Shown: positions 20,488 through 55,216 of the stretch, one piece after another
How positions within the stretch are numbered: position 1 is the first letter of the stretch
How the letters are laid out: the number at the start of each line of letters is the position of its first letter
Program-made: the position numbers and the translations under genes
Assembly (NCBI GenBank): GCA_963749655.1
Contig: CAVVOB010000016.1
Span: 1-64,000, forward strand
DNA: 64,000 bases
DNA from: Nitrospirota bacterium
GTDB lineage: Bacteria > Nitrospirota > UBA9217
Reading direction: 5' to 3'
The notes under the pieces: generated by a model
Seen by the model: the letters and a program-made list of their open reading frames with translations, nothing else
Told to the model about the DNA's origin: nothing
Databases searched by the model: none

Positions 20488-20517
20488 ATAGACGCATATC
20501 AGGAAAAAAAGGATACA
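20488..20517 (-). promoter_or_regulatory. Putative ECF sigma promoter, copy A
   Basis: Minus strand TGTATC-N17-CGTCTAT just upstream of an RBS. Confidence 0.7.
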
Positions 20518-20613
20518 GCCGATTGAACCAGTTCTTAGTTCTGAGTTCAGAGTTTTGAGTAAGAAGTGTATCTGGTGAACCGTTGTTGTTTTACCGCCAT
20601 GTCATGCCGGCGG

Positions 20614-21069
20614 CTATTGCCGCCCCACTTTCACAAGAAAGTGACAGACCTCATCGCCCCTGCCGATCGTCTGCAAGATTTCGACCTCGATCGGCCTGCC
20701 TGCCACCGAGGCGAATATGGTCTCCGTCATCCCCTGCGAACAGTAGCACTGCACCCTGTGCAGTTCGATCAGGCCGGACCTGACCAGGGGACATCCGCAC
20801 TCCCTGAATATTCCTCTGATCGACTTCTGTTCCTGCACCCATTTGCCCGACAATCCACGAGCTTCGCGGATCATGTTCCACCCGGTCACAAGGTCGTCGA
20901 GTGAGCCGACGTTTCTGCCGAGGTATCTTTCGCAGAGCGAAAGGATGTCCGCTGCGCACCCCTGTCCGCAGGGTTTCATGATCAGGGCCTGCTGCTGTTC
21001 GTCAAGTCCGCTGATGCTTGCGTGAAGAAGTGAGACCCAGCTTTTGTTCTTGTTGATGGGCAGGTTCAT
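20614..21069 (-). CDS. Cys-rich V4R/DUF6144-like protein
   Basis: CGQGC, CGCP, CYCSQG, TIGRGDEVCHF. Confidence 0.7.
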   Translation of the reverse strand: MNLPINKNKSWVSLLHASISGLDEQQQALIMKPCGQGCAADILSLCERYLGRNVGSLDDLVTGWNMIREARGLSGKWVQEQKSIRGIFRECGCPLVRSGLIELHRVQCYCSQGMTETIFASVAGRPIEVEILQTIGRGDEVCHFLVKVGRQ

Positions 21070-21153
21070 TGCAACTCCTCCAGCGGGATCAAGGCCCGTA
21101 AGCGTGTTCATCCGTGTCTCAATGCAGACATCCGCAGTGTATTCCTGCGTCGT

Positions 21154-21477
21154 TCACTGTCTCCGCTCGACAGTCCTGCAAACTTCTTCCGTAACGAATA
21201 TCGGGGCCTTCCCGTTTCCAAGCTTGACCTGTATTACTTTGCCGATGAGTTCCGCGGGGGAGTCTTCCAGCGGCCCGACTTCAACCTGCTCGCCCCGCTC
21301 GCGCATCATTTGTGCAAAATCCTCAGGCGAGACAGGAACCCTCGACAACTTCTCCATCCTGACCAGCATCTGCAGGTCTGTACAGCCGACTTCCCTTCCG
21401 AGCATGTGCCATCCCGGGTGCCGGGCAGATGCCGGCAGCGGCATAAAGAACAGAATACAGAAGAACAGACGAACCAT
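21154..21477 (-). CDS. Hypothetical secreted protein
   Basis: Signal peptide-like N-terminus; RBS AAGGGGG. Confidence 0.6.
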   Translation of the reverse strand: MVRLFFCILFFMPLPASARHPGWHMLGREVGCTDLQMLVRMEKLSRVPVSPEDFAQMMRERGEQVEVGPLEDSPAELIGKVIQVKLGNGKAPIFVTEEVCRTVERRQ

Positions 21478-21497
21478 ATGCAGCCCCCTTGCGTTGT

Positions 21498-21953
21498 TTA
21501 CTCGACCGGCAGAGATGCTTTTCCTTCGACAAGGAACGAAATGATCAGGCCCTCCAGCACGGAGCCTGTGAGCAGCAGCACGAGCTCAAGAAGATTGAGG
21601 ATCAGGGGCTCCTGGAGCAGGGTGTGATAGATGAACCACTCCTGGAACAGCCAATACAGTGCCCAGATCAGCAGGCCCCAGAAGAGTCCTTTTTGGACCC
21701 AGTTCCTGCCCGGGACGGCAGCCCGAAGAATCGCGAAGAACAGGCCATGGAGGGCGCTCAAGAGAACAAGACCGGCCACGGAAGCCGGGATATCTCGTTT
21801 CGGCGTGATCTCGATGAACAGCCGGCTTTGAAGCGCGGGATCGTAAAGTACCGATTTGATCAACGGGAGCGAAAAGAGCGCTCCCAAAACGCCGTTGCCG
21901 ATGAATCCGCCCAGCAGTCCTGCAACAATTGCCTTTCCGTAATTCCTCTTCAT
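21498..21953 (-). CDS. Hypothetical four-helix membrane protein
   Basis: KGLFWGLLIW motif; RBS GAGGAG. Confidence 0.75.
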   Translation of the reverse strand: MKRNYGKAIVAGLLGGFIGNGVLGALFSLPLIKSVLYDPALQSRLFIEITPKRDIPASVAGLVLLSALHGLFFAILRAAVPGRNWVQKGLFWGLLIWALYWLFQEWFIYHTLLQEPLILNLLELVLLLTGSVLEGLIISFLVEGKASLPVE

Positions 21954-21999
21954 TATTTAACTCCTCACGTGCAATAAGGATAATGAGGCGCTCATGTTT

Positions 22000-22458
22000 T
22001 TAAAAATATCCATCCATCAGCCTGTCTACCCAATCCGGCACCGTCGCCATCATAACACGATCATAGACCGGATAGTACGGCTTTACATCGACGACAGGAG
22101 TCCCGTCGATGGCGTCAAGCTCTCTCACTACCAATACTCCGGGTTCGATGCCCACGATGGATACCGCCGTTACACCGAGCGGATTAGGGCGGTCCTTCGC
22201 CCGCTGGGCGAAGATGCCGACTTCTGGCATGGAGGCGAGTCCTCGCGGCCTGCGAATGAGATGTGCGGAAGGTTCGAAACGGGCCTCGTGCAAAAACGTA
22301 ACGATCAATGCGTGTGAGAACTGTTCAATGCCCTGCAATCCCTCACAATACTCCGGAAGCAGAACAATCCGGGACTCGACATCTCCCCACTTTTCATCCG
22401 TCTGCTCCTTGATATGCGATCGGACATATCCGATTACTTTGAGTGCGATCCTATTCAT
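22000..22458 (-). CDS. tsaA: TrmO/TsaA (YaeB)-family tRNA methyltransferase-like protein
   Basis: IGYVRS, GIFAQRAKDRPNPLG, LDAIDGTPVVDVKPY. Confidence 0.9.
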   Translation of the reverse strand: MNRIALKVIGYVRSHIKEQTDEKWGDVESRIVLLPEYCEGLQGIEQFSHALIVTFLHEARFEPSAHLIRRPRGLASMPEVGIFAQRAKDRPNPLGVTAVSIVGIEPGVLVVRELDAIDGTPVVDVKPYYPVYDRVMMATVPDWVDRLMDGYF

Positions 22459-22550
22459 AAATGCTCCTTTGTCTATTCTCCCTCCAGGGCCTGAAACGGC
22501 GAAATCAGCGGCGGCGTTTCATTGAAGTCCGCGGGAGAACAGGAACGGTC

Positions 22551-23654
22551 CTAGTGGTCCGTGATCTGTGTTTGCAGTCCGACGCCCATGTTCTCCATAT
22601 CCCCCAGTAAGCGTCCGGGATCCACAACCTGTCCCATCATTTGGAGCCCTGGTTTACGGATTGAGCCGTCAAAATATTGTTTCAGGCACGCGATCACCGG
22701 AATAACCGTAAAATCGTATGCGCTGTCATGGTCGGCGTGAATTTCAATTGTTCTGTATTGGCCGTTCTTTTCCCCTTCTGCTTGAAGTAAAAAAACGATG
22801 CCCTCTTCTGTTTTGGAAAATCTATTCAATCCCCATATAAGGGACTTTGCCCAGAAATGGCGGAACGATCCTTTTTTGAACATATGGGACAGCATCATGA
22901 GGGGAAACAGAATATAATCGACAAACCAGTTGAATCCCGTGGTATAAACGCCTGTTTCCTTCAATTTGAATAATGCCGGCAGAGCTCGGGTTTCGATCAT
23001 GTCCATGGGCATGCAGTTCCTGACCCCAAACCGATGTCCGAATGCGATCTTGAGCATATCCTTGTATGTTGCGATCCTCCATGTGCCGTCCTTGAAGATG
23101 TCCACCCTGTAATCAGGTATCATATCCACAAGTTCATAGATCGACTCCGGTTTTTCGATCTTTACATTCATCGTAAAGGCAATGATCGCCTTGTCATAGC
23201 GGTCGAAATATTCAGCACCTTTTCGGATAAAAGCGGCAGGCAGTCCGGGATGAAAACCCGCCTGCGTGATAAAACAGCGTCCGGCCTCCCTGATCCGCTC
23301 ACTCAAACGTTCAAGCACGGGATAAACATCCTGCTGAAAATATATATCCAGGTAATCGATTCCCGATTCCAGAGCAGTTTCCGCGATCTGTTTCGCCCAC
23401 CTTGTCGTCGTTGCGGCAACAAGCACGAAATCGATGTTGCGAAAGGCCTTGCGAAGGCTTTTTATATCGCACGCATCTGCACAACGTGCGAAAATCCGAT
23501 CCGACGAAAATTCCTTTCCCAGCTTGACTGCCTGCTCTTCGGCCTTTTTGACGTCCCTTCCGGCCACAATCACGTCCGCTTCGGTCTCTTTGAGCAGATA
23601 CCGGCAGAAAACTTTTCCCGTGCCTCCGTAGCCGCCTAAGACAAGTATCTTCAT
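22551..23654 (-). CDS. Saccharopine dehydrogenase-family NAD(P)-binding protein
   Basis: ILVLGGYGGTG, VAGRD, AGFHPGL. Confidence 0.85.
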   Translation of the reverse strand: MKILVLGGYGGTGKVFCRYLLKETEADVIVAGRDVKKAEEQAVKLGKEFSSDRIFARCADACDIKSLRKAFRNIDFVLVAATTTRWAKQIAETALESGIDYLDIYFQQDVYPVLERLSERIREAGRCFITQAGFHPGLPAAFIRKGAEYFDRYDKAIIAFTMNVKIEKPESIYELVDMIPDYRVDIFKDGTWRIATYKDMLKIAFGHRFGVRNCMPMDMIETRALPALFKLKETGVYTTGFNWFVDYILFPLMMLSHMFKKGSFRHFWAKSLIWGLNRFSKTEEGIVFLLQAEGEKNGQYRTIEIHADHDSAYDFTVIPVIACLKQYFDGSIRKPGLQMMGQVVDPGRLLGDMENMGVGLQTQITDH

Positions 23655-23793
23655 ATAGTCTCCGTCTCACTCGTGGTTTTAGCACGCACCCGGCAATTTG
23701 TCCGGTACGAGCATGCACATCAGCCACAACTGGAAAATCGAAGCTTTGAACCTCATGAAGCTCGTCAGCGCTATAGACTGGTCTTTCCTGCTT

Positions 23794-24531
23794 TCAGAAC
23801 ATCACCTTTAAACGGACATATCCCCATCCGATATGCCAGAGCAGGTAGTAGGCGAATCTGAAAGCGTACATGGACATGAAATCATAGCGTTTGAAAATCA
23901 TCAACTGCAACAGATTGATCAGAAACACATGGAACCCCACATACGCGACTGCCCAAGCGGGGTATTGGTCTCCCATCCATAGTGTCTGATATACGGGCTC
24001 CACCAACGCGACGATGAGGATGCTGATCCAAAGAACATATTCAAATCGCACCTTCCTGAACAATGCCGTCAGCGTAAACAGGAGTACCGTCAGAGGCATT
24101 ACGTGAAAAAGAACTTCGACAAAAAAACCGATCGCAGGGTAAAACAGCAGCGATGCGGGAAACAGGATGTTCGTATCAGCCGGGAGCACGATCTTGAGGT
24201 CGACCAGGATCATTATCATTCCCAGAATCGCAGCAAGACCAAAAGACAGGTATAGCCCTTTCAGACTAACCTTTCTATAGATCGCGAACCAGCCCCGGGA
24301 AAGAAGAAACGTAAGAAGAGTTCCTCCCAGGATAATGATCAGCAGGCCGGCAAGGAAAGGATTTAGCTCACCGATAAACCGCTCAAAAGGCCGATTATCA
24401 GTAAACCGGATCAGGCCGGTCAGTGCGATAACTGCGATGGACAGGCCGAAATAGGCACGATATTGCCGTCGTTCCCGGAAGATAAGCTCTTTTGCATTTG
24501 TCATCACAGCAGTCCTCTGCTTCAACCGCAT
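23794..24531 (-). CDS. Hypothetical membrane protein (possibly CPBP/Abi-like)
   Basis: About seven hydrophobic segments; FFVEVLFH and YYLLWH motifs. Confidence 0.7.
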   Translation of the reverse strand: MRLKQRTAVMTNAKELIFRERRQYRAYFGLSIAVIALTGLIRFTDNRPFERFIGELNPFLAGLLIIILGGTLLTFLLSRGWFAIYRKVSLKGLYLSFGLAAILGMIMILVDLKIVLPADTNILFPASLLFYPAIGFFVEVLFHVMPLTVLLFTLTALFRKVRFEYVLWISILIVALVEPVYQTLWMGDQYPAWAVAYVGFHVFLINLLQLMIFKRYDFMSMYAFRFAYYLLWHIGWGYVRLKVMF

Positions 24532-24625
24532 TCACCTTATCATAAAATCATTCGATCTTAAAGTCACCTCTTTGTGTTTTTTGGCCCCCTTTTTTCTGGA
24601 ATGGGCATCTATGCCGTTCTTATGA

Positions 24626-25510
24626 TCATGTCTTCGGAACCTCCCGCGCCATGAGCCTCGGCAATTCCCAGGGATGCCATTTCAGGTATCCGGCTATCGG
24701 AGGCGGAACAGACGGCTGCGCCAAGGCTTCTTTCCTCGTTCCGGTCCATTCGAAAGGCAAATGTTTTATGCTGCCGGGCGTCTTCATGTCTTCTACGGCT
24801 TCGAGCGCGGCCAGGAGCACCGCCCGCTGCCGGTCCTTGTCTCCGGGTTGCCCCATGATCCGGCCGAAGGGATGCTCTATTGCTGCAAGGCGCGGTACGC
24901 CTACCGCCGATGTCAGTTCCGGTATGATTGTCAATGCGATGGTGGTTATCCCCGCTTGCTCGACCTCTCGCTGCGCCAGTCCGACGGACCAGCAGCAGAC
25001 CGGTCAGGCAGGGATGAATACGGCAATGTCGACCTTGTCCTGCCGGAGATGATTGATGATCGACGGAATGCTTTTCTGCAGCAGATCAGCCGGTTCGAGA
25101 ATATATCCCATGAACGAGTAGTGTGACGATGCCGCTTTGCCGACCTTTCCCATCTCCACCAGCTCGTCCAGCCGTTCCATAGGCAGCAGGCAGTTCATGT
25201 CCTCTTCACCGTGACGCGGATCGATGTGCATATGATACACACGAATGTCCCCGGTTCGCGTTCCGCGGGGAATGATCCGATAGGAGGGATCACCCCACCA
25301 TGGATTCTTTCGCTCCCCTTCCTGGTCAAAGGGGCGGTCGGATTTAAGAGCGATTCCCCCGGTGCTGATCAGCGCCACCTTACAGTCGGACAGGGGTTTG
25401 GACAGCGCCGTCCAGGGGACCGCGCGTGGCGATTCAAGTTTGATCCATGACTTGATCATGTTTTTCGACAGGCCGCTGATGAAGCGATAGGAGTCCACGG
25501 TTTTCGTCAT
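24626..25510 (-). CDS. PrdB/GrdB-like selenoprotein (294 aa, Sec169 in a UPVC motif)
   Basis: KPLSDCKVALISTGG, GDPSYR, HYSFMGY; in-frame TGA at 25004-25006 followed by PVCCWSVGLAQREVEQAGITT, continuing in frame into ORF 24626-24934. Confidence 0.85.
24971..24998 (-). promoter_or_regulatory. Candidate bacterial SECIS hairpin
   Basis: mRNA CUGC-U-GCUGGUCC-GUC-GGACUGGC-GCAG; upper stem starts 10 nt after the UGA and has a G in the loop. Confidence 0.65.
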
Positions 25511-25538
25511 GCTTCGCCTCCTTCTTTTCGACGAACGA

Positions 25539-25996
25539 TCACAGCTCCTCGTGCAGCATCGATCCCGGAGGAAGAACCTCTTCCGCCGCATCAAGCCGGC
25601 ACTCCATCTTTTCGGCGGCGTGCTGAAGCGCTTGAAGTTCGCCCTTGAGCCTTGCGATCTCTGCTGTTCTACGGCATCCGGTAAGGGACCCCACGGGCAG
25701 CCCGACGAACAGGAGGCCTGCTGTGTCCTTGTTCCTGCAACGCCGCTGCGCATCGGATTCGCCGGCCAGCACAGCAGTCAATTGCGCATCCTCCCGGCAA
25801 AGTTGTTCGCAATTCCAGGTCATATAGGGAGCATTGTCCATCTCGACAGGCGCTATCGCCTCCGGAAGTATCGCACAGCCGCCGGTAATAAGCGCCGCAA
25901 GTATCACTAAAATAGAGAAGATCCGCTTGGCGCCTTTGCTTTCTCCGCGAGCTCCGCGTCTCCGCGTGAAAAGAAAGAAAAAGGAATTCGTTTCAT
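25539..25996 (-). CDS. Hypothetical lipoprotein (5' end disturbed by a repeat arm or frameshift)
   Basis: Lipobox LITGGC; conserved-looking Y..W.CEQL and EIARLKGE; ATG at 25996 is out of frame with the body. Confidence 0.6.
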
Positions 25997-26016
25997 CGTT
26001 GATTTCCCTGAACTGT

Positions 26017-26484
26017 CTATTTGCCGCATCGGCACGTTGCTTCGGCATTCTTTGAACCTGCATTCTTTTCCGCCTGCAGGATGTCGAACAGGATACCGGC
26101 GGCAGCGCCGGTCATGTGTTTGCACTTAATGAGATTTTCTTGTTTGCCGAACGCGTCAAGGACGGCTTTGCATTGGGTTGCGTCGAACGCGTCGAGGAAG
26201 CGGTTTCTGAACTCCGTTGCAAGTGCATAGGCCTTCTGCTTATCGGCGCCGGGCTCCGTTCTGCCGAACAGCCAACCCAGCGCGATCATTCCTCCCGTCA
26301 ACGCACCGCAGGTCTCGCATTTGGTCCCGCCGAACCCTCCGCCGAAGGCTGTCGCGACCTTGGAAGTATACCTCTCCTGCTTTGATGCACATGACTCGAC
26401 GATGGCGGTAGAAACAGCTTCTGCGCAGTTGAAGCCTGACTGAAAAAGATCGAACGCCCTTTGTTCCACCTGTTTCCTTTCCAT
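26017..26484 (-). CDS. C_GCAxxG_C_C family putative redox-active protein
   Basis: GFNCAEAV, FGGG, TCGALTGG and two downstream Cys. Confidence 0.9.
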   Translation of the reverse strand: MERKQVEQRAFDLFQSGFNCAEAVSTAIVESCASKQERYTSKVATAFGGGFGGTKCETCGALTGGMIALGWLFGRTEPGADKQKAYALATEFRNRFLDAFDATQCKAVLDAFGKQENLIKCKHMTGAAAGILFDILQAEKNAGSKNAEATCRCGK

Positions 26485-26592
26485 GGTTATCCTCCCTCTC
26501 CGATAATCGGGTCTGTTTTCGTAAAAAAGAATTCATCCGGATACTTTGACCGGAATTTCGATTCCCAATCATCGCGTGCCATACCGGTATTT

Positions 26593-26700
26593 TCAGGAAT
26601 AAAAGAAATAACTGATTTCCGCCAATAGCACTATAAGCGCTACTATGATCTTTACACCTTGCATTGTTCTATCTTCCTCTTGCCCCGTATTGTTCATCAT
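26593..26700 (-). CDS. Putative 35-aa single-pass membrane peptide
   Basis: RBS AGGAGG 8 nt before ATG; MMNNTGQEEDRTMQGVKIIVALIVLLAEISYFFYS*. Confidence 0.45.
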   Translation of the reverse strand: MMNNTGQEEDRTMQGVKIIVALIVLLAEISYFFYS

Positions 26701-26847
26701 TTCAGCCGCCTCCTGTCGGGTCCATCACGAGCAGTACCGTGCCGGCTTGCCATACTGTTTTGATATATGTACAGCCTGCCGAATCGCGGTAAGGTACCGA
26801 TACATGGCTCAAGATTCTCACAAAGGAACACCATTTTCAATCAGGCT

Positions 26848-26879
26848 GCGACGAACGGCGGAATCAGGCGACGAACGGC
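26848..26879. promoter_or_regulatory. Direct repeat GCGACGAACGGC x2 (LytTR-type site candidate)
   Basis: Copies at 26848-26859 and 26868-26879; reverse complement GCCGTTCGTC resembles the AlgR site ACCGTTCGTC. Confidence 0.4.
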
Positions 26880-26935
26880 ATAAAAAAGGGTGCAGTCGCA
26901 CTCGCCGATTCTTTTCGCCCTCCGCGGCGTCTGGT

Positions 26936-27135
26936 AATCCCGCGCCTTGGCATCCCCCGGCTTTTGCCGGGGGTGGAAAGCGCTCACTCGCGCGTGACAC
27001 GAACGTGTCACGCATGCGCGAGTTTGCAGTTCCACCTGGCACTCCGTGCATCCGCACTCGTAAACGCCGGGTGCAGGCGGGAGGTCGCGTCAATTTTGAG
27101 TCCCGACAAGTCGGGATGCCGGAGGGGGCTCCACT
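26936..27135 (+). repeat. Structured dispersed element, copy 1 (200 bp)
   Basis: Near-identical to the reverse complement of 52272-52424, plus an extra internal segment of about 45 nt. Confidence 0.9.
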
Positions 27136-27143
27136 AAGCCGTT

Positions 27144-27980
27144 CTAGTGGAGAACTGTCTTTCTTGCCGACACTTTCAAACTGACAACGGTCTGCCCGAG
27201 TCGTTCCACTTCGTTCGCCGGCACGTTCATTTTTTTGATGAGATCTTTGAGAACAGGCTGTTCCGCGATCAGTTCAGCCGGGAAACGGCTTTCCCCGACG
27301 ACCGACACTTCGTCAAATCCTGCTTGTTTTATGGCGTCGATATACCGTTCTTTAAGCATAGCCCCGCCCACGCACCGGACATACGCTTCGACCGAATTAT
27401 GGACGTACTCCGGAAGGTCTTCAAGAAGGGCCATGTCCGAAACCATGAGCACCCCCCCGGGCTTCAGCACGCGATAGGCTTCCCGGAAGACCCGGGGCTT
27501 GTCCGTTGAAAGGTTGATGACGCAGTTCGAGATGACCACATCGACCGAGGAGCTGTCGACCGGAAGGTTTTCGATCTCTCCCAGACGAAAATCAACGTTG
27601 CGGTAGCTGTTGTTCCATGCGTTCTCTTTCGCCTTGTCTATCATCTCCGGCGTCATATCCACACCGATGACCCGGCCTCTATCGCCCACAATGTTCGCTG
27701 CAAGGAAACAGTCCACCCCCGCTCCGGAACCGAGGTCCAGGACCGTATCGCCCTCCTTGATCGCAGCGAGTGCAACAGGATTGCCGCAGCCGAGCCCGAG
27801 GTTGGCGCCCTCCGGCACCTTCTGGAGTTCATGGTCGGTATATCCTGCCACTTTGCTTGCAGTCTGAATAAACCTGTCATCGAGATAATTCTCTTTCTTT
27901 GAACAGCCGCAGGAACTGCTTTGTCTTGCCGTTGCAGCGAACCGCTCTTTTACCGCGTCTCTGATGCTTTTGATTCCCAT
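27144..27980 (-). CDS. arsM: Arsenite S-adenosylmethionine methyltransferase
   Basis: GANLGLGCGNP, VLDLGSGAGVD, ISNCVINL, CVGGA; N-terminal SSCGC. Confidence 0.92.
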   Translation of the reverse strand: MGIKSIRDAVKERFAATARQSSSCGCSKKENYLDDRFIQTASKVAGYTDHELQKVPEGANLGLGCGNPVALAAIKEGDTVLDLGSGAGVDCFLAANIVGDRGRVIGVDMTPEMIDKAKENAWNNSYRNVDFRLGEIENLPVDSSSVDVVISNCVINLSTDKPRVFREAYRVLKPGGVLMVSDMALLEDLPEYVHNSVEAYVRCVGGAMLKERYIDAIKQAGFDEVSVVGESRFPAELIAEQPVLKDLIKKMNVPANEVERLGQTVVSLKVSARKTVLH

Positions 27981-28001
27981 CTTAGTATCCTCCTTGAATG
28001 G

Positions 28002-28328
28002 TTATTTCCGTTTCTTTGCCCTCAAATTACACTGGTCCCGATCCTGTACGACATGATCAGGAGTTTCTTCGTTTTGCTCTTCCTGTAATTCTACGGCCAT
28101 GCTCGATCCGCAGACACAGACCCGTATTTCGAGATCCTTTGCGAAACGTCTGTTGGTGCGTTCTTCGGTGCCACGGAATACGCCATGAGGCGGAAGAGTC
28201 GTCCATCTCTTTTCATCGTAGAGCGCGCCACAGGAGCACTGTTTCGGGAAGGAGTTTTCTGTCCGCATCTTTTTGGATGCTGCATTTACATTGGCCGCCT
28301 TTTCGGGGTGCGTAATGCTCAATTTCAT
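28002..28328 (-). CDS. Hypothetical protein with two CxC motifs
   Basis: FPKQCSCGALY ... RVCVCGSS; lies between ECF motif copy B and arsM. Confidence 0.55.
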   Translation of the reverse strand: MKLSITHPEKAANVNAASKKMRTENSFPKQCSCGALYDEKRWTTLPPHGVFRGTEERTNRRFAKDLEIRVCVCGSSMAVELQEEQNEETPDHVVQDRDQCNLRAKKRK

Positions 28329-28359
28329 ATATCAGAACCCCACCAGCGTACCGTTATAT

Positions 28360-28389
28360 ATAGACGAAGGAACCACGAAAAAGATACAC
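28360..28389 (-). promoter_or_regulatory. Putative ECF sigma promoter, copy B
   Basis: Minus strand GTGTATC-N16-CGTCTAT. Confidence 0.7.
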
Positions 28390-28424
28390 TCCATCGGATG
28401 AAAATACGCCGAGAAACGATAGGG

Positions 28425-29070
28425 TTACTTATAAGCAACGATCACCTCGGACGGGAACAACCACTGCTGGTGGTATTCCCTCGTTGTTACGGTGAAACCG
28501 TGCTCTTTCAACCGATCCGCGAGCTTCACTCCCCTGCAGCCGCCCATCGTTCTCGGCGAAAATCGGTAAACAAGATCGTATACTTTCGCCCAGATGCTCT
28601 CGCCTTCGGTCATATTAACGAGCACCAGTTTTCCGTTCTTTTTCAGGACGCGCTTGAACTCGTCCAGCACCCTGTCCATGTCTTCATTGGCTATGAGATC
28701 GAACATATAATTGTTCACCAGGGTATCTACTGACCCGGTCGCGGCAGTCAACTCAAACGCTGTTCCCTGGGAAAGCTGGTATTGCGCGTCTGATAGTGTC
28801 GACAGACGCTTCTTTGCCTTTTCCAGCATCCCGCTGGAAAGATCGATGCCGATGATTCGTTCCTTGGGGATTCCGCTTTACGATCTCGTAAAATGCCAGG
28901 CCTGTACCGACCGCCACCTCGAGGATATTCTGTCCGTTTGTGATGCCGGCCAGTTCGATCGCCCGCGCCCTGGCACGCGACTCGGTCAACAGGCCCCATA
29001 CATCGTAGAGGCGGGCCAGTTTGTCGTATACAGCACCGATTTCTTTTTGCGATACTTTTGCATCCAGCGC
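28425..29070 (-). CDS. Class I SAM-dependent methyltransferase, frameshifted; start uncertain
   Basis: YDKLARLYDVW, ILEVAVGTG, NNYMFDL, RVLKKNG. Confidence 0.8.
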
Positions 29071-29194
29071 ACTCCGCGATATCTGAAGAATGCCCGTTCC
29101 CGAACGTAATGCCGCAGCAACCCAAAATTCTCGTCATGATCTTCCTCCTTTAAGGTATAACACGATGATTATGAACATCTTCATTTACAAAGCA

Positions 29195-29292
29195 GTCTCG
29201 CGCAAAGCCGCAAAGACGCGAAAAAACGCTTTAAAACTTAATCATGATTCAAGGGTTGGAATTTCTTTGCGCCTTTGCGTCTTGGCGCGAAA
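29195..29292. repeat. Palindromic element (CGCAAAG family)
   Basis: GTCTCGCGCAAAGCCGCAAAGACGC ... TTTGCGCCTTTGCGTCTTGGCGCGAAA. Confidence 0.75.
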
Positions 29293-29330
29293 ATCTTATT
29301 TGAGACTTTGCATTGTTATTCTCGATCGAT

Positions 29331-31697: not shown

Positions 31698-31770
31698 GAA
31701 ATGACTCCTTCCAATCCAAATCACCAATCCAAATAAGAACTCACAAAATAAGAACGCACAAAATTCAACA

Positions 31771-31860
31771 TTGAACCGTCAGGGCGCGAAGGTCGCGAGA
31801 AATGCTCAGGAAGTGTAACGGTTAAGGTTTCCTAGCGTCCCTGGCGCCCTCGCGGTGAAA
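31771..31860. repeat. Palindromic element (CGCGAAGG family)
   Basis: Arms related to 16471-16591; lies inside the ABC operon. Confidence 0.65.
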
Positions 31861-31881
31861 TGTCATTTTTTGTGAAGTCAT

Positions 31882-32604: not shown

Positions 32605-32642
32605 TTGACACGCTCCTTGTTGTCGAATATAATATTCATTAA

Positions 32643-42667: not shown

Positions 42668-42684
42668 TGCACGTTCATGATACA

Positions 42685-44983: not shown

Positions 44984-45375
44984 TTCTGTGCACCTCCGGA
45001 AGACCCCGGCTCCGCAAGATACCGTTCGATCTGGGAGAGGAATGTTTCGGGGTTGATCGGCTTTTCGAGATAACCGGTGCAGCCCGCTTCAAGAGCTTTC
45101 TCCCGGTCGCCCGACATGGCGTACGAGGTGACGGCAACAATGGGAATGGTCGCAAGGTCCTTCGACTTGCGCAATGTGCGGGCCACCGTGTAGCCGTCCA
45201 TGCCCGGCAGCTGGATATCCAGAAGGATAAGCGCGGGATGGAGGCTGGACGCCGTTTCGATGCCCTGCCGTCCGTCGCGGGCGCCGGTCACCGCGTAACC
45301 GTTTTTCTCGAGAATATAGGTCACGAGATAGAGGTTCTGCTCGTTGTCCTCTATGTAAAGGACCTTGTTGTTCAT
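44980..45375 (-). CDS. Single-domain response regulator (DivK-like)
   Basis: [20 protein letters not shown]. Confidence 0.93.
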
Positions 45376-47528: not shown

Positions 47529-48031
47529 GCGAAGTTCCTTCCCCGGTCCGCTGTCTGCGCCGGTTCCTGCCGACGCTGATACTTTCCGTCGACTTCTGCC
47601 ATCGTGAAGCCTTCGAGCACGCCATCAGATATTTGCCGGTCGGAATTCCGAATGATTACGCGCCGGTATCAGATATCTAAAACAGTACTACAACTAACAT
47701 AAAATGTCTAGGAAAGAACAGGGAAATAAGCGATCGCTGATATTGTAGGGTTCCCGCGGGGAGGACGTTTCACGGGACCGTTTCCCGGTCTTTTAGCGCA
47801 GAACTTTGGTTTCGGCTTCATTACAGATGCTGCCTTCTCGAAGATGACGTTGTAAGACGACCGTGGGCAATTCAGGGCGATGCGGGAGCAGTTAATGATT
47901 TCGGTTGCCCGTAATGCAAAATTGCACGATCATGGAGATGCGCCCATCCCGTTCTCTGCCAGGCGGTTAGTCGTGTGATGATTACGCCGTTCCGCAGAAA
48001 GGCTCGGAAGGCAGAAAGGCTGAAGACTATT

Positions 48032-48113
48032 ATCGCGCAAAGCCTCGGAGCACGCAAGAAAAGCCAAATTCCATTTTTTCTCAATTTGCGTCTTTGCGCC
48101 TCTCTGCGCGAAA
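48032..48113. repeat. Palindromic element (CGCAAAG family)
   Basis: TCGCGCAAAG ... TTTGCGTCTTTGCGCCTCTCTGCGCGAAA. Confidence 0.65.
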
Positions 48114-48141
48114 ATCGATATTCCTCTCAAAATCGAAATAC

Positions 48142-48896
48142 TCAACGCCGGGGGCTCGCGGGCTGCATCTTCTTCAGGGAGCTGTACACCCCCTGCAGAT
48201 CAGCGACGATCGTGTCGAGATCGAACTTGTGCCAATCCAGCCGTGGCGGACTGCAGGGACGACCGGGCCTCGCGCAGGGCGCGGGCCTGTTCGGTTCCTT
48301 CGGCAGGATGATAAAGCTTCGCGTTCGCGTCGAGAAGGGCCGCGCTTTCCGTCAGCAGAAGCAGCACCGCCTTCGCTTTTTCCGGCACATAGGGAAAGAT
48401 GCCCATTCGCTCGTTGTGGCACTGCACGCATACGGCGGCTACGGTATCGGGCGTAAGAATGCCCGTGACCATGGACCCGTGGCAGGTCACGCATTCAGGC
48501 CCCTTTCCTGCCGATTGCAGGATATTGTAATGCCGGCTCTGGGAGAACTTGAAGAACTCGGCGCCGTGGCATTTGCCGCAGGTGGTCGGGATGTTCTTGA
48601 AGTAGACCGTGCTTTGAGGATCGGTCGAGCCGAGGACCCCTGCATGGGCATCCTTCTGCTCCGCTGCAAGGGGATTCCCTCCATGGCATTTTTCGCAGGT
48701 GACCCCGTGTTTCTGGTGTATCGATCCCTTCCAGCTGTGGGACTTCGCTCCCACGAAACTGCTGCCCGGAAGCCGGGAATGACAAGTGACGCAGGAATTT
48801 CCCGTTTTTTTCATCCGCGGCCTCGTCCGCGCGGGGAGCAGCAGAAGGACGCACACGAAAAGAGCGCAAAGAAGAACGCTGATCAACCTTTGCCAT
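48142..48896 (-). CDS. Pentaheme c-type cytochrome, frameshifted
   Basis: CVTCH, CEKCH, CGKCH, CVTCH, CVQCH; ATG overlaps the cytochrome b stop (TAATG); C-terminus LDWHKFDL in a shifted frame. Confidence 0.85.
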
Positions 48897-50139
48897 TATT
48901 GCCTCTCTTTCTGTTGTACCGCCGCAGCAGCGCAAAGCTGGCGCTCCACGCCGCCGCTGTTGCGACGATCGCATAGACCGTCATTGCCTTTGGGCGTGAT
49001 ATGAAGCACGTCGATGTATCCGGCCACGACCATCATGCAAAGGAAAACGATGCCCCCGATGCCCAGCGAGGTCATGAAGGGCCTGTGGAGCGGGTTTTCC
49101 ATATAAGTGCTGCGGTTCCTTTGACCGGTCGAGGAACGGTATCAGTGCGTAGGCAAGGAAGGTACACGCCGGGAAGATGACGCCGCCGATGGTCTCGGGC
49201 GTGATCTTCCCTCCCAGGATGGAAAACGACAGGTCGCCGGGCACGAGCTTCAGGAATCCGTAGACCACGAGAAAATACCAGTCAGGCCTCATCACGGGCG
49301 TTCCCGGCGACGGCGGACCGTACGTCTCTATCGGGTTCAAGGGGATATAGGTCGCCATCAGCACGATCACGAACAGCAGGAACAGGAAATAACGACAGGC
49401 TGATGACGGCCTGTTCAGGCCAGATCGGGATGCCGATGAGCCGCTTGCCGCCCTGCGCCTCCTTTCGGCCTTTGTTGGACGCGGCTCGGTATGTTTCTGT
49501 TTTATCAGGATGAGCATGTGCAGGCTGATGAGGCCGATCAGCGTGACCGGAATCAGCATGACATGCATGAAGAAGAAGCGGGGGACGGTCCCGTCCGAAC
49601 GGAAAGTCGCCGGCAAAGAGAAGACTGGACATCCAGTCCCCGATCCAGGGCATCGACTTTGCCATATAGTAGGCTATCGACGTGGCGGTCACCGAGAACT
49701 GGCTGTAGGGAAGCAGATAGCCGGTAAAGGCCGCGATCATCGCCGTGCCCCACAGGCTGAGCCCCACGAGCCAGTTTATCTCCCGCGGCTTCCGATAGGC
49801 CCCGGTAAAATAGACCCTCAGGAGATGGGCGAGAATGGCGGCTATCATGATCATGGCCGACCAGTGGTGGATGCGCCTGACGATCAGGCCCATCGGGAGC
49901 AGGTCGATCCTGACGACGCTCGCATAGGCCGCCGGGACCATTGCCCCGAAAAGAGAGACCATCTTGGTCGAAGGCTCGTAGAGAAACCCGAGGAAGATGC
50001 CGGTGACGACAAGGGTGATGAAGGAAAACAGCGCCGTTTCTCCGAGCAGGAACAACGGGTGCGTCGGAAAAGTCTTGCTCAGGAATTTGTCCTTGAACTT
50101 TTTGAGTTCCAGTCTTTCATCAAACCATTTAAAGATCAT
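48896..50139 (-). CDS. Cytochrome b of a Rieske/cytochrome b complex (unsplit), frameshifted
   Basis: WFDERL, RRIHHWSA...AHLLRV, YRKPREINW, TGYLLP, H-14aa-H pair and PDWY Qo motif. Confidence 0.92.
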
Positions 50140-50221
50140 GGCAGTGTCCTCCGCGTCCTTGGAGAGTCTTATTGCTTCTCATTTAAATTCTGAGTCAAAT
50201 TCTTAAATCAAAAAAACAATT

Positions 50222-50311
50222 ATCGCGCGGGGGCGCAGGGACGCAGAGGAAAGAAAATCTGCTCTTAAAACCTTCATGCATTTCCCGGCGACTCCGCGTC
50301 TCAGCGCGAGA
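50222..50311. repeat. Palindromic element between Rieske and cytochrome b genes
   Basis: TCGCGCGGGGGCGCAGGGACGCAGAG ... CTCCGCGTCTCAGCGCGAGA. Confidence 0.65.
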
Positions 50312-50359
50312 CGGCCCTTGATTGAGAACTCATGCCTCACTTCTCTGAGGTCAGTCTCG

Positions 50360-50975
50360 CTACACCTGCGGTCCGATCGGTCCGTTGAAATCGCTCGTAA
50401 AGGCGAGCGTGCCGTCCTCTTTCACCTTCACCCCGATCTGGGAGAGCGGGATCGGGGCAGGACCTCCCATGACCTTCGCTCCCTCGGCGGGATTGAAGAT
50501 GCTGCCGTGGCAGCGGCATTCCGTGACCGAGGCGTCGGGAGATTCCTTGTTCCTGGTCCAGTCAACGGTGCAGCCCAGATGGGTGCAGATGGCGCTGTAG
50601 GCCGCGAACCCCTTGTCCGTGAGCGACATGTCGGTGGGCGGTTTGAAGGTCTTTTCATCCAGCCTGATAAGCTGGACGAGGTTTGCGGGATTGGACGATT
50701 TGCCCGTCGGATAGGCGAGCACGGCGTCGCCGGCCTTCATCGATGAAGCCGTTACGGGCGAACCCGTGTGGTCGCCCTGGGCGATACATGAGCACGTCTC
50801 CCGGCTTGATCGTCGTTGCATAGCCTCCCCCCTTCTTTTCGGGGGCGAGCACTTTTAAGAAGGCAAAAAGAGATCCGAAAGCTCCTGCAAGCGAGGCGAG
50901 CATCACGCCGAGGGTGAACTTCCTCCGGGTGATCCCCTCGCGGTCTCTATCTTTCCCGGAGGTTCCCTCTACCAT
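50360..50975 (-). CDS. Rieske [2Fe-2S] protein, frameshifted near 50785
   Basis: Tat motif TRRKF; CTHLGC and CRCHGSIF boxes; GGPAP. Confidence 0.92.
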
Positions 50976-51232
50976 AGCAGTTCCTCCTCACGGTCCTCCG
51001 ATACCTCCCTGAAGGGGATGAAATATCGCGCAAAGAGCACGATCTCGACGCCCGCGAGCAGGAACTCGCACGCAAGCAGGGTGCCGAGGAGGTAATCGCT
51101 TCCCTTGCCGGTTATCAGGAGATAGGCGAATGCAACGCCCGCAGCGAGAAGCAGGATTGCCAGGACCAGAACCGCTGTTGCGGCGGCCTTTGGATAAGCG
51201 GGCTTTTTTTCTTTTATGATCTCAAAACTCAT
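50969..51232 (-). CDS. Small two-helix membrane subunit (FbcX-like position)
   Basis: Two transmembrane segments; overlaps or abuts both neighbours. Confidence 0.75.
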   Translation of the reverse strand: MSFEIIKEKKPAYPKAAATAVLVLAILLLAAGVAFAYLLITGKGSDYLLGTLLACEFLLAGVEIVLFARYFIPFREVSEDREEELLW

Positions 51233-51233
51233 A

Positions 51234-51966
51234 TCATTCCCTCTTTTCCAGAACGAAATACACGATATAGCCGATGATGAACAAAACGATCACGGCGCCG
51301 AAGGCGAAGAAGCCGATCTGAAAGGCATCCAGGTCGCTGGGGAACTCGGGAATGAAGGCCGGCTTCTTTCCTGTTGTTTTCTCCTGGGCGATCTTTATCC
51401 GGATGCCCGACAGCGTGTTCACCGTTGATTCAGTAACGTCCATCGGATCGATTTGATCAAAGCCCGTCGTATCCTTGTGGCAGCTTTCACAGACCCTGGG
51501 CACCTCCGGCATCGTATTGCGATGTGCGTGGTGGCAGGTAACGCAGGAGGGTCCCGCCTTTTTGGTCGAGATAGGCCTTGCCCATGATGCTCCTTGCATA
51601 CCGGTCCACCGATGCGCTGTGGCACCGGCTGCACATGGAAAACAGTCCCTTGCCGGAAGGCTTGCCCACGAAGCCGTGGGACGTTGACATGGCCCGCGAC
51701 ATCCTGTCCCCGAACTCCTGGCCGCCGAGGCTTTTCACGTCGCCGACATCGACGCTTGCATCTCCCCCGTGGCAGCGGTCGCAGGTGATCCCGTTCTGCT
51801 GGTGGATCGAGCCCTTCCATTCCATGACTGGCTGCGCCAGTTGCCCCCCGAGAAAGGTGTGGCACGCGACGCAGGCCGAAGGCCCCTGCTCCGCACGACC
51901 CTTTGTCCCGGAAAGAACGAACACCGATGCGCAGACCAGGATCAATACAGGACTTTTTATTTTCAT
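51234..51966 (-). CDS. Membrane-anchored pentaheme c-type cytochrome, frameshifted near 51560
   Basis: Signal peptide; CVACH, CDRCH, CSRCH, CVTCH, CESCH; C-terminal transmembrane helix. Confidence 0.87.
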
Positions 51967-52178
51967 GCTTTTGCCTCGTGTGTTCTATCGTTTCGGGACC
52001 CGGCTCGACCAGGGTTTCCGGACATTCATCAGTGTAAACGAAATAATTAACGTAATTCTGCGGAAAGAGGGTTAAAAGGCATACCTAGGAATTAAGTATA
52101 CCTCATCAATATTCAGAAATCACGTACCGTCGGTATTTTCTTGATAAAAAGGGGGTAACAGTGAGGGGTTTCATTCAC

Positions 52179-52528
52179 CCGGCAAGCCGTAAAAAATTCC
52201 TGGAATGTCATTGTGAGAAGAGCTTTGCTCGACGCGGAAATCTCGAATTTCTCGACTTCATCATGGCTGAGAGTGGAGCCCCCTCCGGCATCCCGACCTG
52301 TCGGGACTAAAATTGACGCGACCTCCCGGAACTGCGAACTCGCGCATGCGTGACACGTTCGTGTCACGCGCGAGTGAGCGCTTTCCACCCCGGTAGGAGC
52401 CGGGGGATGCCAAGGCGCGGGATTGCGGAGTTTATCCCGAGCAAATAGTTAGATTGCTTCGTTACACTCGCAAGGACTGCGAGGGACCCGCCCGCAAAGA
52501 CGGCTACAAGTTTTCAGCGACTTGCCGG
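52179..52528. mobile_element. Nested composite of miniature elements
   Basis: Outer inverted ends CCGGCAAGCCGTAAAAAATT / AAGTTTTCAGCGACTTGCCGG; middle GTCATTGTGAG...CTCGCAAGGAC (52207-52477); inner 153-bp element. Confidence 0.6.
52272..52424 (-). repeat. Structured dispersed element, copy 2 (153 bp)
   Basis: Reverse complement of 26936-27135 lacking the internal extra segment. Confidence 0.9.
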
Positions 52529-52538
52529 ATTATACCGG

Positions 52539-53060
52539 TCAATCGAAACGAAAAGCAGCGAGATAATCCTGCAATTTCATGCGGCCGTCGTCATCCAGCG
52601 GGTCGCAGTCCCCGGCGTCCTTCGCGCCTGAGGCTGCCAGCACTGCAAAGGCCATGCAGGTCGGCTGCCCGCAGGCCTTGCAGTTGGTTCGCGGCAGGAA
52701 TTTAAAGATAGTGAGCGGATGGGCTTTTGCCGCCCCTTCGAACTTGGGAACAATTGATTCCCGGCTGTCCCAGGCCTCATTGATCTTGCTCTTGAGCCAT
52801 TCGAGAACAGCGCGCGCCTCCGCTTCGTCCCGAAGAGCGTTGACGGCGATCTTTCGGCTGTGGACCGTCACGAGCTTTCCGTTCATTTTGAACGTTACGG
52901 ACGGGGGATTCCTGATATACGTGTCTCCGCCCAGCAGGGCATTGAGATAGGGCAGCGCATCCCCCACGTCATTATCGAGATGGGCAATGCAGTGCACCGA
53001 CTGGAAGCTGGAATTGCACGTCGGTTTGAAGATCTCCGGCTGGTAGCCGTTCAGCAGCAT
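52539..53060 (-). CDS. Fe-S cluster-binding protein (AcsC/CdhE-like C-terminal 4Fe-4S domain)
   Basis: LPYLNALL; LPRTNCKACGQPTCMAFA...CDPL. Confidence 0.88.
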   Translation of the reverse strand: MLLNGYQPEIFKPTCNSSFQSVHCIAHLDNDVGDALPYLNALLGGDTYIRNPPSVTFKMNGKLVTVHSRKIAVNALRDEAEARAVLEWLKSKINEAWDSRESIVPKFEGAAKAHPLTIFKFLPRTNCKACGQPTCMAFAVLAASGAKDAGDCDPLDDDGRMKLQDYLAAFRFD

Positions 53061-53071
53061 CGGTCCCCTCC

Positions 53072-53332
53072 TCAGGCCCCACATCCGCAGCTCTGGCCTG
53101 CGCTGCAGCCGGCCGGCGCTGCCTCTGTTCCCAGCCCTGCTGCGAAGTCATCCATCTTTGCAGCGGCCCCTTTTCTTACGGCTTTGGCAACGGCAATGGC
53201 CATGGTGATGTCCTCGTCATCGGCCCCGCTCTCCCGGGCCATTGACACATGATACTGAAGGCAGGGCTGACAGTTGGCGGTTATTGATGCCCCCACGGAG
53301 ATCAATGCTTTTGTTCGTGCGTCAAGACTCAT
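53072..53332 (-). CDS. AhpD/CMD-family protein
   Basis: ANCQPCLQYH; Cys-rich tail. Confidence 0.88.
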   Translation of the reverse strand: MSLDARTKALISVGASITANCQPCLQYHVSMARESGADDEDITMAIAVAKAVRKGAAAKMDDFAAGLGTEAAPAGCSAGQSCGCGA

Positions 53333-53458
53333 GATTATTTCCTCCTACTATTTTAGCAGTTGATTCCAATTTGCACGGTCCAATTGAACTTTTTTACACT
53401 TACTCAAGTTCGTCGAAAATTCTACATTCATCGCACCGTCTTTCCCCGTGAGAAGGCA

Positions 53459-54010
53459 TCAGCTGCAGCCGCAGCCCGCTGTCTTGTCCGATGCAGTACC
53501 AGCGCCGCACCCGGCGCCGACCGGCGCCGTGTGAGCACCAGACTTCGCCAGTTCTGCAAGCACGGCGTCCGCCACCAGCCGCGCCGCCGCCTTGCGGTCC
53601 GCTTCCGGCACCTCATCGATATCGAAGTTCTCGCTGTATTTACGGTAATAAGAAAGCGCGTCGAACTGCGCAAGTTTCTCCTTACCCACCAGGTTCTCGA
53701 GCACTCTGCCGTGACAGTGCAGGAAACAGCCGTCGATCAGCACGATCTTTTCCGCTGTCGTCATCCACTTCGCCAGCGCCGACCCCGGGACGGTCAACAG
53801 CTCTCCATGGCAGCCGCGGCGATACGGTTCCTCCTTTGCCACCATATGCGCGGCAAGCCGCGCGATCTCCCCTCGGATGCACGCGCCTTCGCAGGACAGG
53901 ACCGGAATCTTCCCTTCCTTTATGTAACGGTCTCCCGCCTTTTCTCCCGCCGGACAGTGGTTACTGGTTTTCGAAATTTCGAGGGTGAAGCGGTTATTTG
54001 TATTACTCAT
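53459..54010 (-). CDS. DGC-domain putative zinc-binding protein
   Basis: SCEGAC, GCHG, LIDGCFLHC. Confidence 0.88.
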   Translation of the reverse strand: MSNTNNRFTLEISKTSNHCPAGEKAGDRYIKEGKIPVLSCEGACIRGEIARLAAHMVAKEEPYRRGCHGELLTVPGSALAKWMTTAEKIVLIDGCFLHCHGRVLENLVGKEKLAQFDALSYYRKYSENFDIDEVPEADRKAAARLVADAVLAELAKSGAHTAPVGAGCGAGTASDKTAGCGCS

Positions 54011-54032
54011 TGTCTTCCTCCCGACTTTCTTT

Positions 54033-54551
54033 TCAATTTTTCTTTGAATGCGAAGACAAATACAACAGTAGTTGCTGTTCTTCGTCCTCACGCATTTTTT
54101 TCACAAAGCATTCGTCACTGGTACAAAGATTTTTTGACCAGTAGTCCGGCGTGTGAGATTCCGGCGCGATAAGATCGTGACATCGTCCACAGTGAGATTC
54201 GTACAGATTTTTACCCGTCCTGACGTCAGCCATGTAATTCTGCACCGTGGCGAGAGCTTCTTTGGAAGAATTTTTTGTGCACTCGTCTCTGGCAGGAACG
54301 GATAGAGCAGGGTCCGGTACCTTGTGGCAGATACTGCAAGTCGATGCAAATGCGCGCCCGGCATCGTGATAGCTCTGCTTCAATAGGACTGTCTTTTTCT
54401 CTGCTGCGGGCGGGATGTCTATGGATGCTGCCTTGGCGGGGAAAAACAGGATGCTCAAGAGCACCGTAGAGACAAACAATGCGGCAATGGCGTGGATACT
54501 GGGATGTAACGTCTTCTTCCCTGTAATAGGGGACAGTCTTTCATATGACAT
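54033..54551 (-). CDS. Diheme c-type cytochrome
   Basis: Signal peptide; CSICH and CGRCH; RBS AGGAGG. Confidence 0.8.
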   Translation of the reverse strand: MSYERLSPITGKKTLHPSIHAIAALFVSTVLLSILFFPAKAASIDIPPAAEKKTVLLKQSYHDAGRAFASTCSICHKVPDPALSVPARDECTKNSSKEALATVQNYMADVRTGKNLYESHCGRCHDLIAPESHTPDYWSKNLCTSDECFVKKMREDEEQQLLLYLSSHSKKN

Positions 54552-54576
54552 TTTCTCACCTCCTCCTTTTGACCGT

Positions 54577-54607
54577 ATAGACGGAGGCGAGGGGAAAAAA
54601 GATACAC
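54577..54607 (-). promoter_or_regulatory. Putative ECF sigma promoter, copy C
   Basis: Minus strand GTGTATC-N17-CGTCTAT directly after the sigma gene stop codon. Confidence 0.75.
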
Positions 54608-55216
54608 CTATTGCATGGGAAATTTTACGTGGATGGTCTTCCGGTCACAGGACAGCTCGTTCCGTTCATCGTGGTACAGATGGCATGCCTGGTCCATGGC
54701 CTTCCTGAGCTGCTGCCGGCCGCGGTGCAGCCGTATCTTGATCGTATCGAGGGAGAGGCCGAGAAGATCTGCGATCTCGGCATTCGTGAAACCTTCAAGG
54801 TCGCCGAGGACCAGGACGGTGCGGTAGTTTTCAGGGAGATCGTTCACCATGCCGCGGATACACTCATTCATGTCCTTTCTGATCAGGAGCGTATCGACTA
54901 AAGGACCGGTATCCATGAGCACCACACTATTTGTATCACCAGTGCTGTCGTCGATTGAAGAACCGTTGAATTGTCTTTTTGCCTGTTCAACAGGCTTTCT
55001 CAGATGGTCCAAGGCAGTGTTCGTCGCGATCCGGTAGATCCACGTGGCAAGAGAAGAGTCTCCCCGGAAGCTGTCCAGGGACCGGCTCACTTTCACGAAG
55101 ACTTCCTGGGCCGCGTCCTCGGCGTCAACATCGCCGACGAGCCGCCGGAGATAGCCGACGATTTTCGGACGGTACTCTGCGTATATCGTTGAAAATTCCT
55201 TTTGACTGTCAGTCAT
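54608..55216 (-). CDS. ECF RNA polymerase sigma factor (SigZ-like, Cys-containing C-terminus)
   Basis: DAEDAAQEVF, WIYRIATN, LPENYR, TIKIRLHRGR; tail ACHLYHDERNELSC. Confidence 0.93.
   Translation of the reverse strand: MTDSQKEFSTIYAEYRPKIVGYLRRLVGDVDAEDAAQEVFVKVSRSLDSFRGDSSLATWIYRIATNTALDHLRKPVEQAKRQFNGSSIDDSTGDTNSVVLMDTGPLVDTLLIRKDMNECIRGMVNDLPENYRTVLVLGDLEGFTNAEIADLLGLSLDTIKIRLHRGRQQLRKAMDQACHLYHDERNELSCDRKTIHVKFPMQ

Follow-up and report, generated by a model that had tools for sequence, protein, structure and literature searches.

Which promoters are read by a sigma factor encoded at the end of an arsenic gene cluster, and what switches it on? The question is raised by a 64-kilobase (kb) stretch of a Nitrospirota genome (GenBank assembly GCA_963749655.1, contig CAVVOB010000016.1, positions 1 to 64,000; the window), in which a gene for an extracytoplasmic function (ECF) sigma factor closes a series of ArsP_1, ArsR, Acr3 and thioredoxin genes that share its strand. 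A first-pass annotation of the window had noticed a bipartite motif in three places and proposed that the sigma factor uses it to drive a dispersed arsenic, metal and thiol-stress regulon. We compared the window with loci (L numbers) and genomes (G numbers) from elsewhere; coordinates given without a contig are those of the window. The motif is very probably the promoter of the ECF sigma factor at 54608–55216, as judged from where the two occur together, and the sequences make it likely that this sigma factor activates itself through its cysteines.

Three probable promoter boxes in one genome

The motif TGTATC-N16/17-CGTCTAT has 3 matches in the window and none in 100 shuffles, and the same three exact copies, promoters A, B and C (Table 1), are the only ones in the whole assembly (39 contigs, 4.27 megabases, 87% complete). 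The earlier description of three minus-strand copies with spacers of 16–17 nucleotides (nt) is therefore confirmed, although it had drawn B and C each one base too long; its ends for A were correct. All three boxes are intergenic, as described, and lie 24 (A), 31 (B) and 25 nt (C) ahead of an ATG rather than 25–32 nt. Promoter C stands 1 nt past the TAG stop codon of the sigma gene, which agrees with the reported abutment, and the ribosome-binding site that follows promoter B is weak.

A weight matrix built on 85 sites, all outside this genome, places the three boxes first genome-wide (C, 39.9; B, 36.4; A, 32.4). The next site scores 19.4, the reversed genome reaches 18.3 at most, and the scan of the whole assembly yielded no further strong site above background. 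Because of the gap in scores we count three promoters, spanning 34 kb, in an 87% complete assembly, and these would make up the whole strong regulon of the sigma factor there. Sites of a TGTAAC-N-CGTCT/GGTCT-like form, with matrix scores of 14–19, lie before genes at C23:117039, C30:159634, C30:348496 and C12:9901 of this assembly and are probably promoters of another ECF sigma factor.

The motif follows one clade of sigma factors

Membership of the ECF family is clear from PF04542 and PF08281, both above cut-off, and from TIGR02937 (94.5 against a cut-off of 42.9); the top Foldseek matches are AlgU, sigmaE, SigH and SigW, and the closest relatives belong to uncultured lineages, Nitrospirota among them. 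By scanning genome contigs we obtained 80 ECF loci, 26 of which encode a sigma factor with the same Cys-bearing tail (hereafter the clade), the other 54 ECF loci serving as controls. According to the sequence records, the clade loci belong to Nitrospirota, Desulfobacterota, Chloroflexota, Acidobacteriota, Spirochaetota and Proteobacteria. The pattern derived from the window is present in 16 of the 26 clade loci, and a loosened consensus (YGTATCYTT-N13/14-CGTCW) in 20; neither occurs in any of 36 loci of the related sigma factor SigZ or of the 54 control loci. This clade-specific co-occurrence supports the original assignment of the motif to this sigma factor.

The site is also conserved in its place near orthologous sigma genes: among the 20 motif-bearing clade loci it lies behind the sigma gene in 16, before it on the same strand in 3 and divergently in 1. 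Earlier motif surveys, as far as their descriptions go, looked upstream of sigma genes (PMC3817407, PMC7776599), and a site mostly just 3′ of the gene would therefore have been missed. In a literature search that left most subscription journals outside, we found no description of the TGTATC motif, the clade or a link between SigZ and arsenic.

Searches that started from the motif or from whole genomes point the same way. When metagenomes were scanned with the motif only, the sigma gene was in the flank of 41 of 119 among the matches listed, and of 33 of the 80 with long flanks. Ten of 64 genomes of the window's class carry the sigma gene, and the motif is present in 7 of these 10 versus 3 of the 54 others, with 8 matches to the reversed pattern in the same 64 genomes. 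Two of the three motif-less sigma genomes have a one-base variant beside the sigma gene and the sigma gene of the third has an in-frame stop; one of the three apparently sigma-less motif genomes has a split sigma gene adjoining its site. We also drew 201 genomes from the phylum, some of them shared with the class set; here a looser pattern was found in 6 of 8 sigma-bearing genomes versus 15 of 193 others, and its reversed form in 15 of 201.

SigZ loci carry a one-letter variant

The best NCBIfam match of the window's sigma factor is SigZ of Bacillus subtilis (TIGR02959; original ECF24, now ECF238). It is not itself a SigZ: it scores below both model cut-offs (TIGR02959, 115 versus 168.65 bits; PRK09637, 117.9 versus 212) and falls outside the SigZ branch. 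In two quick trees without bootstrap, the clade and SigZ are on opposite sides of a branch (Shimodaira–Hasegawa-like approximate likelihood ratio test 85/100 and 91/98); their grouping against other ECF sigma factors has support of 67 and 86 in the two, which are unrooted and have an outgroup chosen by likeness to the clade. With cysteine positions, promoter and neighbours in common, the two groups may well be sisters. Like the clade, SigZ has a Cys nine residues before the Leu-Pro of sigma-4 (33 of 36) and another where the last helix ends (35 of 36), no anti-sigma factor has been reported for it, and arsM, hgcC and ArsP_1 are neighbours in common.

The promoters are one letter apart. Both have the T-tract and CGTCT, but the −35 element is TGTATC in the clade and TGCRTC at SigZ loci. 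The SigZ-type pattern (TGCRTC-YTT-CGTCW) is found in 33 of 36 distinct SigZ-model loci (L245–L280, some below the model cut-off and many from related genomes) and in none of the 26 clade or 54 other ECF loci. It was first noticed in five loci and then held in 14 of 15 later ones, which came from an order related to Bacillus and from a proteobacterial class. Across whole genomes of that class, it occurs in 10 of 12 SigZ-bearing genomes versus 8 of 189 others, and reversed in 18 of 201. The spacer is 16 nt in 34 of 34 SigZ-type sites and 17 nt in 64 of 85 clade sites. Further differences are the tail (C-x11-C in the clade, Cys-Cys in SigZ), the recognition helix (DTVKIRLHR versus SGAKSRVQR) and the targets, which are mostly small thiol proteins for the clade, whereas the genes that follow the SigZ-type promoter are arsM, ArsI/CadI or ArsP_1 permease genes. 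ArsP and ArsI are reported to have roles in methylarsenite resistance (PMC6138428, PMC5258700).

The genome has a SigZ of its own, frameshifted, at C12:21–895 (L243). The gene sits directly behind an HgcC-family gene; an hgcA search of the genome gave no match. Three loose matches to SigZ-type sites in this genome were not convincing, with the contig ending 20 nt past sigZ, and a search of plasmid DNA with this sigZ gave no match.

Cysteines and a proposed switch

The 2021 ECF classification describes ECF238 (ECF24 plus ECF44) as having linker and tail cysteines and no anti-sigma factor, and calls its promoter motifs not conserved and the activating signal of SigZ a long-standing enigma (PMC7826278). 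The window's sigma factor shares the linker cysteine (Cys119) and a short Cys-bearing C-terminal extension, with just two tail cysteines. In the best 120 of 6,643 homologues, Cys119 and Cys178 are kept in 120 and Cys190 in 119. An AlphaFold2 model (pLDDT 84, pTM 0.46) puts Cys119 on the helix that enters sigma-4 and the other two on a C-terminal hairpin. The first and last helices of sigma-4 pack against each other, and a three-thiol site formed by Cys119, Cys178 and Cys190 is therefore plausible.

No anti-sigma partner is evident in the sequences. The gene at +1 behind sigma-linked sites is not constant, and +1 genes lie behind the promoter, although an inhibitory role is conceivable for one of them. 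The closest precedents for a sigma factor that switches itself come from Myxococcus xanthus: CorE and CorE2 (original ECF44), which also have linker and tail cysteines and serve as the model of activation by a ligand. Metals are reported to activate both by way of a Cys tail, with no anti-sigma factor involved (PMC3107203, PMC4937300); CorE responds to Cu(II) and CorE2 to Cd and Zn, with one Cys change shifting the specificity (PMC4937300). The window's sigma factor is nonetheless not CorE-like in type: it lacks the linker CxC (present in 1 of 120 homologues) and has 2 tail cysteines versus 6, a distinction drawn from the description of CorE and not from a sequence alignment; the predicted −35 element of CorE is defined around AAC, and its targets are copper-handling genes. 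The window's sigma factor probably works like SigZ and CorE. ECF29 was ruled out, as its RCE/D motif is in 0 of 120 tails and its promoter is GGGAACCT / CATCCAAT. More generally, ECF29, ECF105, ECF116, ECF122, ECF253 and ECF18 resemble the clade in the tail or in one promoter half, and differ in the other half or in having an anti-sigma factor.

On balance we lean towards a self-activating sigma factor that senses a thiol-seeking ligand through its three cysteines, most likely As(III) or methylarsenite, and transcribes arsM and genes for small thiol proteins; for trivalent arsenic as the main signal, we put the chances at roughly even. The sigma factor would be made at the tail of the arsenic island from a promoter outside its own recognition, since no copy of the motif was found 5′ of its gene; the transcript could come from a housekeeping promoter or from polymerase reading through out of the ars genes. 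The ligand, most likely arsenite or methylarsenite, would bind Cys119, Cys178 and Cys190, which are conserved and placed by predicted secondary structure such that they may come close together, and clamp the C-terminal hairpin onto sigma-4, activating the sigma factor. The holoenzyme would then recognise TGTATC and CGTCTA, consistent with the co-occurrence and the spacing, and begin transcription a few bases downstream, so that leaders would be short. The output would be ArsM and small cysteine proteins, a second tier behind efflux led by ArsR that probably serves to buffer or repair thiols.

Genes behind the probable promoters

Table 1 Probable promoters and associated genes in the window
Feature	Position	Strand	Remarks
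Cys-rich protein, 171 amino acids (aa)	19759..20274	minus	no Pfam or NCBIfam match
Small Trp-rich membrane protein	20291..20463	minus	frameshifted just past ATG in this assembly; recurrent target family
Promoter A	20488..20517	minus	17-nt spacer; precedes small Trp-rich membrane gene and Cys-rich gene
arsM, arsenite methyltransferase	27144..27980	minus	PRK11873, 314.3 versus cut-off of 263 bits
Open reading frame (ORF), 108 aa, two CxC motifs	28002..28328	minus	no family; local
Promoter B	28360..28388	minus	16-nt spacer; precedes 108-aa ORF and arsM
Protein with C-terminal putative Fe-S domain	52539..53084	minus	PF04060; recurrent target family
CMD/AhpD-like protein, NCQPC motif	53072..53332	minus	PF02627, TIGR00778; commonest target family
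DGC-domain protein	53459..54010	minus	PF08859; likely ATG at 54010; recurrent target family
c-type cytochrome	54033..54551	minus	two CxxCH; N-terminal hydrophobic stretch; first gene after promoter C
Promoter C	54577..54606	minus	−35 TGTATC, T-tract, 17-nt spacer, −10 CGTCTAT
ECF sigma factor, 202 aa	54608..55216	minus	Cys119 at start of sigma-4; Cys178 and Cys190 in C-terminal hairpin
Genes upstream of sigma	55426..63449	minus	ArsP_1 permease, thioredoxin-like, ArsR, cation efflux, Acr3, thioredoxin, CcdA, thioredoxin-like, second ArsP_1 permease, FmdE, TauE, 90-aa protein

Elsewhere, the first ORFs behind 63 sigma-linked sites have a median length of 85 aa, and 57 of the 63 encode at least two Cys. 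Sorted by motif rules, over sites with a called ORF and with a loose rule for the membrane protein, they comprise 21 CMD/AhpD-like, 20 Trp-rich membrane, 6 DGC and 16 other proteins, the last including OsmC-like, VKOR and Fe-S proteins. The conserved targets appear to be small thiol proteins (AhpD/CMD-like, DGC and Trp-rich membrane), with arsM an occasional one.

The sigma gene and the genes behind promoter C were largely named correctly by the first-pass annotation (ECF sigma, DGC, AhpD-like and Fe-S), but its diheme cytochrome, although it has the two CxxCH motifs, scores below the DHC cut-off. Homologues of the Fe-S protein follow the motif in L121, L170, L205 and L206. The arsM call behind promoter B holds, and this gene is the sole strong ArsM match in the assembly; L144 repeats the layout of site, small gene and arsM, and in L083 the order is site, CMD, ArsR, arsM. 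The small membrane gene reported behind promoter A is present, albeit with its frameshift near the start, whereas the PAS-like label given to the Cys-rich gene after it finds no match. In L095 the operon of A comes immediately after the sigma gene; there and in L014, the motif precedes homologues of its Cys-rich protein.

The cytochrome and the 108-aa CxC protein have no counterpart in any other fetched locus and are therefore not core members; database searches with the two gave unnamed or generic matches only. Sites number 1–4 per genome. In G055, assembled as a single contig, one lies ~840 kb from its sigma gene, before a hydrolase gene and an ArsR gene, and distant targets therefore occur. 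A motif-led alpha/beta-hydrolase gene followed by ArsR-cluster genes is seen in three genomes of one genus (G055:C1:984129, G056:C17:60870 and G057:C115:6863).

Weighing the signal

Several points tell against an arsenic-sensing sigma factor that reads this promoter. The consensus patterns were relaxed once the loci had been inspected, the loci share ancestry and are phylogenetically non-independent, and Paenibacillus is over-represented among the controls. Two genomes, G042 and G056 (99% and 97% complete), hold sites without a detectable clade sigma gene, and G212 has the sigma gene but not the pattern. The assembly also contains a true SigZ, above cut-off. Proximity of the three cysteines is based on predicted secondary structure alone, at a pTM of 0.46. 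As for the arsenic link, 19 of 26 clade loci are without the arsenic or hgc genes searched for (besides ArsR), the query set being limited and many clade loci short; arsM lies behind the motif in just 2 other loci (L144 and L083) and is more often upstream of sigma; and the commonest targets are generic thiol proteins rather than Ars proteins.

The alternatives mostly retain the sigma–promoter pair and change the signal. It is unlikely, but best placed among them, that the cysteines are a redox switch, in which a disulfide is formed or lost, and that the genes are a general thiol-stress regulon with arsenic as an indirect trigger. The targets (CxxC AhpD-like, OsmC-like, VKOR, rhodanese, DGC and Fe-S proteins) would suit such a switch, as would the majority of clade loci without arsenic genes. 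Three cysteines are conserved rather than two, however; arsenic or hgc genes besides ArsR accompany 7 of 26 clade loci and 28 of 36 SigZ loci but 0 of 54 controls; and 1–4 sites per genome are few for a general stress regulon.

We regard it as improbable that the cysteines detect a different soft metal (Hg, Cu, Cd or Zn), like those of CorE and CorE2, whose specificity is the kind of trait that a single Cys can shift. Apart from this precedent, a cation-efflux gene lies within the window's cluster, and 3 of 26 clade loci have hgcA upstream, as do G033 and L140, with hgcB in L138. Yet hgcAB is upstream of the site in every case seen and never behind it, which rules these genes out as targets; metal pumps or oxidases do not recur behind the motif; and the arsenic genes led by the SigZ-type promoter also speak against a different metal.

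It is very unlikely that the sigma factor is constitutively active, with structural (for example, Zn-binding) cysteines, and that control is purely transcriptional through ArsR on an operon that ends with sigma. Such a cascade would fit L009, L014, L015 and L017, in which sigma follows ArsR–arsM or hgcAB genes at 18–63 nt, and the window, in which sigma lacks an upstream site of its own and the scan detected no terminator in the gap that separates it from the gene before. (A sigma-70-like site before sigma was spotted by eye, was absent from the scan output and was not used.) But many loci have no nearby ArsR, and in L016, L024, L025, L098, L138, L140, L153 and G055 a site lies 5′ of the sigma gene; this would be a positive loop and a post-translational switch would therefore be needed. 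CorE, moreover, is reported to stay inactive when over-expressed without metal (PMC3107203).

These arrangements do not support one earlier claim, that the regulon is separate from ArsR. The sigma gene directly follows arsM or hgcB in several loci, ending ArsR, arsM or hgc operons, and the motif heads ArsR-containing stretches in L083 and L318, and the two circuits therefore look interlocked. ArsR-type repressors respond to As(III) in the same gene clusters, through three-cysteine As(III) sites. They differ in kind, ArsR being a repressor of unrelated fold that is released by arsenic and the sigma factor a positive switch that acts through promoter recognition.

Least credible is that a different protein (this genome's true SigZ or some other regulator) reads the boxes, or that A and B are dead remnants of cassettes that were rearranged: the above-cut-off SigZ, the sites without sigma in G042 and G056, the frameshifted gene after A and the gene after B, for which no relatives were seen, would favour this, but the TGTATC form is in 0 of 36 SigZ loci, this genome's SigZ is frameshifted, A and B score on a par with sigma-adjacent sites elsewhere, and frameshifts are common across the assembly, core genes included.

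Carrying the arsenic-sensing, self-activating sigma factor one step further, we tentatively envisage, while thinking it somewhat doubtful, that the clade and SigZ are a pair that binds trivalent arsenic directly and reads two non-overlapping promoters one letter apart. SigZ might then drive organoarsenical detoxification (arsM, ArsI and ArsP), and the clade, produced in anaerobes along with the genes for arsenic and mercury methylation, might drive the second tier of small thiol-protecting proteins. If true, arsenic would have a positive switch alongside ArsR, and both the signal and the promoter so far missing for SigZ would be identified. In any case, a SigZ-like clade now has a conserved promoter, with a one-letter variant at SigZ loci, in a group whose motifs were called not conserved (PMC7826278). 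Signal, specificity and regulon become testable with simple reporters; in arsenic- and mercury-methylating anaerobes, arsM and unstudied small cysteine proteins gain a candidate regulator; and sigma factor and promoter could serve as a natural orthogonal pair.

Neighbouring genes and other observations

The 90-aa protein gene directly before sigma (55426–55698; RHKGCxGxGEL) has homologues behind the motif in L123, L150, L206, L207 and L237. Methylation-related genes recur on the upstream side: hgcA or hgcB precedes the clade sigma gene or its promoter in L004, L014, L017, L138, L140 and L229 (G033:C22), and hgcC and arsM precede sigma in L015 and L134. Some 4–7 kb past the end of the window (contig C16, ~67700–71100; L228:5666–9101) are frameshifted pieces of an arrAB-like respiratory arsenate reductase, with chaperone and molybdopterin genes; every ArrA- or ArrB-matching piece is below cut-off.

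A palindromic repeat of ~200 bp follows arsM (26935–27140) and the operon behind C (52272–52424); it returns 61 BLAST pieces genome-wide and is probably a REP/MITE-type element. Downstream of the C operon (48200–51966) are genes for a multiheme cytochrome c, a Rieske protein and a cytochrome b (a bc-type complex), in frameshifted pieces. Single-base frameshifts split many genes of the window, among them TauE, cytochrome b and a methyltransferase at 28425–28989, and affect core genes too, which suggests assembly errors. Two DNA sequencing runs matched in scattered short pieces that leave sites A and B uncovered. At 24626–25753, a GrdB/PrdB-like reductase gene adjoins a gene for a C-GCAxxG-C-C protein; the ORF that ends at 25004 and the next ORF on the same strand match consecutive parts of PrdB, and the stop between them may encode selenocysteine.

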